Part shown: positions 60,534-60,989 of the stretch, piece by piece | Layout of the letters: every line of letters begins with the position of its first letter | Position numbering within the stretch: position 1 is the stretch's first letter | From: Escherichia phage P896 | Sequence record: OL451225.1 | Length of the DNA: 64,000 bases | Direction: 5' to 3' (one strand) | Notes under the pieces: model-generated | What the model was told of the DNA's origin: nothing | Seen by the model: only the letters and a program-made list of their open reading frames with translations | The model's database searches: none | Program-made: the position numbers and the translations under genes

Positions 60534-60989
60534 CTACTTTAAATCCGCCGACCAATTTAATTTTAGCGGTTCTTTATATTCACGGTCCAAAACAACCGGA
60601 ATCTGGACTTCTCCTTTATACGTCAAAGGACCAACATTATAAGATAATGTTATGTGAGGAGTATAGTCCGGGAAATCATGTGTTGCGCCAATGGCTCGTG
60701 CATACATATGTCTGCAACTAAGATAATCTGAATTCAGTACAAGAACCAGGGTACTCCCATCATCAGTTTTCCATACTTCCAGGTGACCAGAGTTGGCTAC
60801 TTCGAAACTACCAGAGGCAACAACATATGGAATATTTACTCTGGAATAACAAATAGTGGAATGGAATTTTTCACGAGGAACGGGATTAGGTACCTTAAGA
60901 GAGCGCTGGAGATTTTCCAGCGCATCAAGAGTTAATTCTGAAAATTTGGCTGCAACATAAAGTCCTTCAGAGACTTCATTTAATGTCAT
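60534..60989 (-). CDS. 57B: gp57B / Acb1-type 2H phosphoesterase (anti-CBASS cyclic-oligonucleotide phosphodiesterase in T4)
   Basis: 151 aa; two H-x-[TS] motifs (HSTICYS, HITLSY); position upstream of 57A and 1. Confidence 0.8.

Follow-up and report, generated by a model that had tools for sequence, protein, structure and literature searches.

The open reading frame at positions 60534..60989 (minus strand) is almost certainly the acb1 gene of a Gaprivervirus, its product being orthologous to Acb1 (gp57B) of phage T4. It lies in a stretch of 64,000 nucleotides from Escherichia phage P896 (OL451225.1), here called the window, the whole of which belongs to a T4-like phage of the SP18/VR7 group (Gaprivervirus, Tevenvirinae). 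The frame starts with ATG and specifies a protein of 151 aa, for which phmmer, Pfam, tblastn and a structural model predict the activity of a 2H cyclic-oligonucleotide phosphodiesterase. T4 57B (from NC_000866), compared with the window by tblastn, aligns over its full length with 82% identity (E=8.6e-87); in a MAFFT alignment of the two proteins 125 of 151 residues are identical (82.8%). A phmmer search of PDB sequences retrieves 7T26/7T27, the 'Acb1' of Erwinia phage FBB1 (E=3.7e-62; 69% identity). The Pfam family PF23474 (Acb1) is matched with 200.3 bits (E=1.5e-59; gathering cutoff 27 bits) over profile positions 1–143 of 144. An initial annotation, made from the DNA alone, had placed a 151-aa gp57B homolog with two H-x-T/S motifs at 60534–60989; the frame is exact, and the protein contains exactly two such motifs, H43-S-T45 and H112-I-T114. 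Its assignment to the Acb1-type 2H phosphoesterases is borne out by the Pfam family, by the match to PDB 7T26 and by conservation of the catalytic His and Thr residues. The alignments to T4 Acb1, Dmd and Sp that it had proposed as a check yield identities of 82.8%, 54% and 65%, respectively.

How far does this kinship extend to the residues that act in catalysis and substrate binding? In T4 Acb1, catalysis is carried out by an HxT/HxT tetrad (H44, T46, H113, T115); four aromatic residues (Y12, W74, F107, W147) stack on the bases, E141 makes a base-specific contact with adenine N6, and residues 145–152 form a C-terminal lid (PMC9117128 section 6). The numbering used in PMC9117128 corresponds to T4 residues in our alignment, and all nine functional residues are identical in the window protein, each at the T4 position minus one: the tetrad H43/T45/H112/T114, the stacking residues Y11, W73, F106 and W146, and the adenine-specific E140. 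The lid, approximately residues 144–151, reads LNWSADLK versus LDWADDLK in T4. A deep protein search yielded 80 homologs, PF23474 being present in 79 of them. Across an alignment of 50 family representatives (28–99% identity) the tetrad is invariant. It includes the histidines whose non-conservation, according to the initial annotation, would have spoken against the family; both are found in 50/50. Position 11 is Y and position 140 is E in 47/50 each, and W146 is W in 44/50, the other six showing gaps. Relative to T4, dN/dS is 0.07 by the Nei-Gojobori method, with dS near saturation, and acb1 is under purifying selection. Could the frame nevertheless be a decaying or non-functional remnant? 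That reading is effectively refuted, and we give it next to no probability: the frame is full-length, its catalytic residues are intact, dN/dS is 0.07, identical or at least 99% identical copies occur in 30 phage records, and the gene is coupled to 57A.

An AlphaFold2 model calculated from the alignment of 50 representatives (mean pLDDT 89.3, pTM 0.82) places the protein beside the same relatives. Its best PDB match by Foldseek is the apo form of FBB1 Acb1, 7T26 (E=1.6e-20, target-normalised TM 0.96, RMSD 0.9 Å over 136 columns), with the product complex 7T27 as the other top match. The phosphodiesterase of Burkholderia phage BCSR5 (9Q2Y/9Q2G) comes next with a TM of 0.6–0.7, and generic 2H enzymes, LigT-type and others, rank after these (TM about 0.45–0.55, E about 1e-4). 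The compact 2H fold is thus seen in the model, and the C-terminal lid is recognised by sequence; lid residues 148–151 are modelled with a pLDDT below 50, as expected, because the lid segment orders only on ligand binding.

The presence of generic 2H enzymes among these matches bears on a different reading, in which the protein would be a LigT-like RNA 2',3'-cyclic phosphodiesterase or 2'-5' RNA ligase working on the ends of RNA, as in tRNA repair, with anti-CBASS activity not its main role. The fold is indeed common to the window protein and LigT (E about 1e-4), phrog_755, the PHROG that the protein matches, bears the label 'RNA ligase', and the RefSeq records of VR7, SP18 and T4 use the same name. 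Against this, the Pfam family of such ligases, PF13563 (2_5_RNA_ligase2), reaches only 11.9 bits (E=0.24, cutoff 27), compared to 200 bits for Acb1; the structural TM to LigT is about 0.45–0.55, versus 0.96 to Acb1; and the features specific to cyclic nucleotides, namely the stacking aromatics, E140 and W146 of the lid, are conserved. Moreover, T4 gp57B, 83% identical, was itself found by activity-guided fractionation as a 3'3'-cGAMP-degrading activity (PMC9117128). We reject an identity as RNA ligase on account of the sub-threshold PF13563 score and the low structural scores to LigT, and regard a main role on RNA ends as very improbable.

For the Acb1 ortholog, a mode of action can be proposed from that of its characterized relatives, T4 and FBB1 Acb1; both enzymatic activity and substrate range are inferred by homology. 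Cyclic di- and trinucleotides made by the CD-NTases of host CBASS systems would be bound in the U-shaped pocket of a small, metal-independent 2H phosphodiesterase, over which the C-terminal lid would close. An adenosine would then be rotated, bringing its 2'-OH into position to attack the 3'-5' phosphodiester, and the two H-x-T motifs would provide acid-base catalysis 3' of adenosine by way of a 2',3'-cyclic phosphate intermediate. In this manner the CBASS signal would be linearised, 3'3'-cGAMP, for example, being converted to GpAp. Because the signal is linearised, the CBASS effector would never be activated; it would stay inactive, and abortive infection would be avoided.

Does the window enzyme share the substrates of T4 Acb1? 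Characteristic of Acb1 is the cleavage of cyclic di- and trinucleotides that contain adenosine (3'3'-cGAMP, cUA, cAAA), with cGG and cA4 left intact, together with rescue from CBASS. Hobbs et al. (2022) tested nine further homologs besides T4, all of which cleaved 3'3'-cGAMP and cAAA (PMC9117128); the enzymes of SP18, VR7 or Shigella phages are not mentioned in the main text and supplements of that study (PMC9117128). Few viral 2H phosphodiesterases are as promiscuous as T4 Acb1, which degrades 2'3'-c-di-AMP as well and, on over-expression, can trip Panoptes; the lid is needed for this (10.1101/2025.08.21.671373; PMC12657218). Doherty et al. show that 2H phosphodiesterases whose active sites are conserved may still accept different substrates and yield different products, also inside the Acb1 structural group (10.1101/2025.08.21.671373), and exact specificity can therefore not be read from the motifs alone. 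The window protein might be a true member of the family with a substrate range materially unlike that of T4, for instance sparing 2'3'-c-di-AMP, and so not triggering Panoptes, or extending to other signals. The variation of scope and products inside the Acb1 structural group lends this idea some weight, as do the 26 substitutions that separate the window protein from T4. The nine known substrate-contact residues, however, are identical to those of T4 and the lid is nearly so; with 83% identity and a dN/dS of 0.07, conserved function is the default expectation. We consider a materially altered range unlikely, and favor a T4-like Acb1.

The gene, its family, its mechanism and the exact Acb1 sequence are all already known and catalogued. 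The identical 151-aa sequence is public for VR20 (AIZ02214.1) and CJ20; its name in UniRef is 'Anti-CBASS protein Acb1'. The protein was found in 1478 of 50,697 phage records, in 1311 of them with at least 80% coverage. In most GenBank/RefSeq records, as well as in PHROG 755, it is still called 'RNA ligase' or 'hypothetical protein', and the names Acb1 and cyclic nucleotide phosphodiesterase appear only in UniRef and a small number of records. With gene, family, mechanism and exact sequence in public databases, the discovery value of this identification is small. Its value is one of annotation: it confirms a Gaprivervirus, that is, an SP18/VR7-type T4-like phage, and marks the 'RNA ligase' label as outdated.

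Compared with T4 Acb1 (gp57B, NP_049750.1), the window protein is of similar length (151 versus 152 aa; 82.8% identity) and shares the tetrad, all five nucleotide-contact residues and the C-terminal lid; it differs in its 26 substitutions, which lie mainly at the N-terminus and at surface positions. FBB1 Acb1 (7T26/7T27), with 69% identity, a TM of 0.96 and an RMSD of 0.9 Å, likewise has the tetrad and the equivalents of E141 and W147, but shows F and Y at the positions of W73 and F106 of window and T4, as well as a one-residue insertion after position 79. SP18 Acb1 (ACB1_BPSP8) is identical at 149 of 151 positions, the differences relative to SP18 being N86D and I101L. The VR7, VR20 and CJ20 orthologs are 99–100% identical (CJ20 and VR20 identical), and gene order is common at the level of the genus.

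The surroundings of acb1 follow T4 order, 57A-57B-ip genes. Over 2 kb round the ORF the DNA shows 99.0% identity to Escherichia phage 212 and 96.5–98.5% to CJ20, VR20, SP18, VR25 and VR7. As in T4, acb1 lies between 57A, which directly precedes it, and internal-protein genes, which follow it. Gene 57A, encoding the tail-fibre chaperone, occupies 60989..61219 (minus strand; Pfam PF17594, GP57, 104 bits; T4 57A by tblastn). Its TAA stop and the ATG of acb1 overlap by one base (TAATG), with acb1 immediately downstream, and the junction sequence indicates that acb1 is translationally coupled to 57A; in T4, 57A and 57B overlap by four bases instead. Further upstream of 57A lie gene 1 (dNMP kinase; Pfam DNMK, 258 bits) and ORFs at the positions of T4 genes 3, 2 and 4. 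Consensus scans of 59000–62000 were uninformative as to expression signals: 11 promoter-like sites were counted where 8.5 +/− 4.3 are expected, and four terminator-like sites where 2.1 +/− 1.3 are expected.

Only ipI follows 57B in T4, whereas four ip-type genes do so here. The capsid-targeting sequence (CTS) is defined in PMC9026906 section 2.6; we searched for a leader of about ten N-terminal residues, MKT[F/Y]xE[F/L]xxE, ending at the Glu processing site. All four ORFs immediately downstream of 57B start with this T4 internal-protein leader, and two of the four are assigned to 'internal head protein' PHROGs. The ORF abutting acb1 (60141..60506, minus strand; phrog_3966) has a probable second-Met start at 60473, from which it encodes 110 aa, and begins with the leader variant MNIKTYNEFLAE. 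It is followed by an ip9-type internal head protein (59860..60132, minus strand; phrog_7673 'internal head protein', E=3e-56; 100% identical to VR7 ip9; leader MKTFNELFNE), by an ORF of internal-head-protein type (59552..59851, minus strand; phrog_2667 'internal head protein'; leader MQTFHEFLVE) and by a further ORF of internal-protein type (59218..59496, minus strand; phrog_15565; leader MKTYQEFINE). Throughout the window, seven minus-strand ORFs start with MKT[F/Y]x[E/D][F/L]xxE, at 60132, 59851, 59496, 46382, 45555, 45234 and 5037, and the variant is found at 60473. The ORF starting at 5037 is gene 61.1 (4870–5037), with the leader MKTFKDFINED; T4 gp61.1 likewise begins MKTFKEFIKED. We know of no description of 61.1 as a packaged protein.

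Are the neighbors of acb1 functional analogs of its product, as the initial annotation had framed them? This suggestion does not hold. From the capsid-targeting leader on all four downstream ORFs, their products are predicted to be virion proteins that are packaged into the capsid and injected, a class unlike a cytoplasmic enzyme such as Acb1, and the one that was modelled has no 2H fold. This is the 110-aa ORF, which has only 11 homolog clusters, all from T4-like phages and all starting MKTYxEFLTES. It contains two internal repeats, GVFFQIGNERFQTSK and GMAYFKIGDEQFIMS, and its model (pLDDT 76.7) consists of a leader helix followed by two beta-beta-beta-beta-alpha repeats. A PDB sequence search found no match at E<=1, and a fold search with the model found no PDB match at E<=1e-3. 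The best folds in the latter search, PUR-alpha repeats and MRP1/MRP2, are weak (TM 0.44–0.52, E>=4e-3); these are Whirly-type single-stranded nucleic-acid binders. In a viral-library fold search its own ortholog was the sole clear match (E=1.1e-12), the other matches of comparable structural similarity all being uncharacterised proteins. With no 2H fold and weak PUR-alpha/MRP1-2 similarity only, the 110-aa ORF was rejected as a functional analog of Acb1.

The role of these capsid-targeted ORFs is a mildly interesting question. In T4, acb1 adjoins ipI, whose product is an injected inhibitor of the GmrSD restriction enzyme (Hobbs et al., PMC9117128). By analogy with T4 IPI it is plausible that the downstream ORFs are anti-defence factors of another kind, and the anti-defence idea for such neighbors has already been published (PMC9117128 section 5; PMC9026906; PMC9391042 section 12). 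A more specific and tentative proposal, again modelled on T4 IPI* versus GmrSD, is that at least one of the ORFs 60141–60473, 59552–59851 and 59218–59496 might be injected to inhibit a host defence system for which no phage counter-measure is known, the acb1-ip locus then being a hypervariable anti-defence island. We look on this as possible, if rather doubtful. If true, the 110-aa ORF would be a nucleic-acid-binding or nucleic-acid-mimicking injected factor.

The initial annotation had grouped dmd and sp with 57B as known anti-defence genes, and both are present in the window. The 67-aa Dmd (6597..6800, minus strand), identified by tblastn, PDB, Pfam and PHROG searches, is an antitoxin mimic and a predicted inhibitor of RnlA/LsoA-type HEPN RNase toxins. 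T4 Dmd matches it by tblastn with 54% identity (E=1e-17), PDB 5I8J with E=8.8e-23, and 5HY3_B, from the LsoA-Dmd complex, with E=1.4e-16; Pfam PF17587 scores 72.4 bits against a cutoff of 27, and phrog_2102 is hit with E=2e-33. Spackle, the 97-aa product of sp (6243..6536, minus strand; tblastn, PDB, Pfam and residue comparison), is a predicted periplasmic inhibitor of the gp5 tail lysozyme. It is 65% identical to T4 Sp by tblastn (E=1e-42) and matches PDB 6X6O (E=2.7e-38) and Pfam PF25676 (T4_Spackle; 144 bits against a cutoff of 27). The exact sequences of both proteins are already public (Escherichia phage P896), and the 3.2-kb dmd/sp locus is 96.7% identical to SP18. Both dmd and sp are textbook T4 genes.

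Dmd is a phage antitoxin against RnlA/LsoA and a true counter-defence protein (PMC8266594; PMC9391042), and the Dmd of the window would likewise bind and block toxins of the RnlA/LsoA type. It resembles T4 Dmd (5HY3_B) and the Dmd of 5I8J in its above-threshold Pfam Dmd match, in size class and in its location in the 61-41 intergenic island; it differs from T4 Dmd in sequence (54% identity) and in lying apart from tifA, which dmd adjoins in T4.

Spackle was compared residue by residue with T4 Spackle (gp61.3; 6X6O, 6XC0/6XC1), using the residue list of PMC7677548. A hydrophobic N-terminal leader is present, with G23 kept as the mature N-terminus at the T4 signal-cleavage position; G23, C29, S32, M33, T34, A35, Q37, N76 and C81 are conserved, and these include the disulfide pair C29-C81 and the gp5 contacts S32-A35, Q37 and N76. 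The two proteins diverge in their last nine residues, which form alpha-5 and the tail and belong to a region in contact with gp5 (KIVQWVTGE versus NIIAEVVGE); this divergence presumably co-varies with the phage's own gp5. Spackle acts in the periplasm on gp5, the tail lysozyme that superinfecting phages bring along, and by inhibiting it brings about superinfection exclusion; it also confers resistance to lysis from without (PMC7677548; PMC7650644). Named anti-defence in the initial annotation, the gene does not belong in that class: the protein of the window is predicted to inhibit the tail lysozyme gp5 of an incoming phage, and its target is no host immune system. For 57B and Dmd the designation stands.

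We rejected the view that 57B belongs to one cluster with dmd and sp, because 57B and dmd/sp are 54 kb apart. They lie in two separate islands, both previously described, dmd and sp in the 'anti-TA island' and acb1 beside internal-protein genes. In T4 the 61-41 interval contains adfA (61.2, anti-DarT), sp, tifA (61.4, anti-ToxN) and dmd; it has been named the 'anti-TA island', and its other genes 'attractive anti-toxin candidates' (PMC9391042 section 12). The order in the window is 61, 61.1, a 63-aa ORF, a TifA-like ORF, ORFs of 119 and about 144 aa, sp, dmd, three ORFs and gene 41. The 61.4/TifA-like ORF (5223–5444, minus strand) encodes 73 aa with a basic central cluster; T4 61.4, the ToxN inhibitor TifA (PMC9391042), matches it by tblastn with 39% identity (E=3.5e-10), and Pfam DUF7279 scores 72 bits versus 24.5. 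The gene had not been named in the initial annotation. Unlike in T4, it is neither adjacent to nor co-operonic with dmd, sp and two ORFs lying between them.

These two ORFs, a phrog_4122/phrog_8539 pair, are of 119 aa (5446–5805, minus strand; phrog_4122; '61.2' in VR7) and about 144 aa (5807–6241, minus strand; phrog_8539). Adjacent but otherwise dissimilar, they share the ending (I/V)DDQIFNAFMKR(G/D), which is how T4 AdfA (gp61.2) terminates at its C-terminus; this common tail may be a peptide with a function of its own or a recombination joint at which gene bodies are swapped. By BLASTP to T4 AdfA the 119-aa ORF matches in the C-terminal tail only and the 144-aa ORF over approximately 87 C-terminal residues (31% identity). 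A full-length match to AdfA (Pfam PF23813) was not obtained, only the last 14 profile positions being aligned (20.5 bits versus 27), and the window phage has no intact AdfA of the T4 type. Three extra ORFs set the window apart from T4 between dmd and gene 41: a 105-aa ORF beside dmd (6801–7118, minus strand; phrog_2110), with no Pfam match and no PDB sequence match at E<=1, a 100-aa ORF (7187–7489, minus strand; phrog_17014) and an 82-aa goF-like ORF (7568–7816, minus strand; phrog_2980 'goF mRNA metabolism modulator'). They are without T4 counterpart there and lie inside the published 'anti-TA island'.

A second T4-type anti-CBASS gene, likewise unnamed in the initial annotation, is found at 43465–43743 (minus strand). 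Its 92-aa product is a homolog of Vs.4/Acb2, acb2 being vs.4 (PMC12657218), and a predicted cyclic-nucleotide sponge; it matches PDB 7UQ2 'Vs.4' (E=2.6e-28) and is 64% identical to VR7 vs.4. It is almost the same as T4 Vs.4 in its first and last thirds, but diverges in a middle segment (about residues 38–75) that is four residues longer than in T4. With acb1 and acb2/vs.4 the phage possesses both anti-CBASS genes of the T4 type, together with Dmd and a TifA-like protein. That the window spans several counter-defence loci, as had been proposed, is correct and extends beyond acb1 and dmd to the TifA-like and Vs.4/Acb2 homologs. An NCBIfam scan of ten proteins (Acb1, Dmd, Sp, Vs.4 and neighbors) gave no hit at E<=0.01, the library being without these phage families.

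Both counter-defence loci differ among close relatives, as a comparison of the window with VR7 shows. No tblastn match in the window was found for the VR7 genes ip6, ip10, ORF041c (a second 61.4-like gene), 042c, 148c and 149c, nor for the mobile endonuclease that VR7 has between genes 3 and 2; conversely, the goF-like ORF of the window is missing from the corresponding VR7 position. At 56081–56503 (minus strand) the window encodes a VR7 ORF147c-type protein (100% match), annotated as similar to cytidine/deoxycytidylate deaminase, and about 0.7 kb away, at 55197–55415 (minus strand), a partial paralog of it with 42% identity. The gene imm and a pin-like ORF are also encoded in the window.
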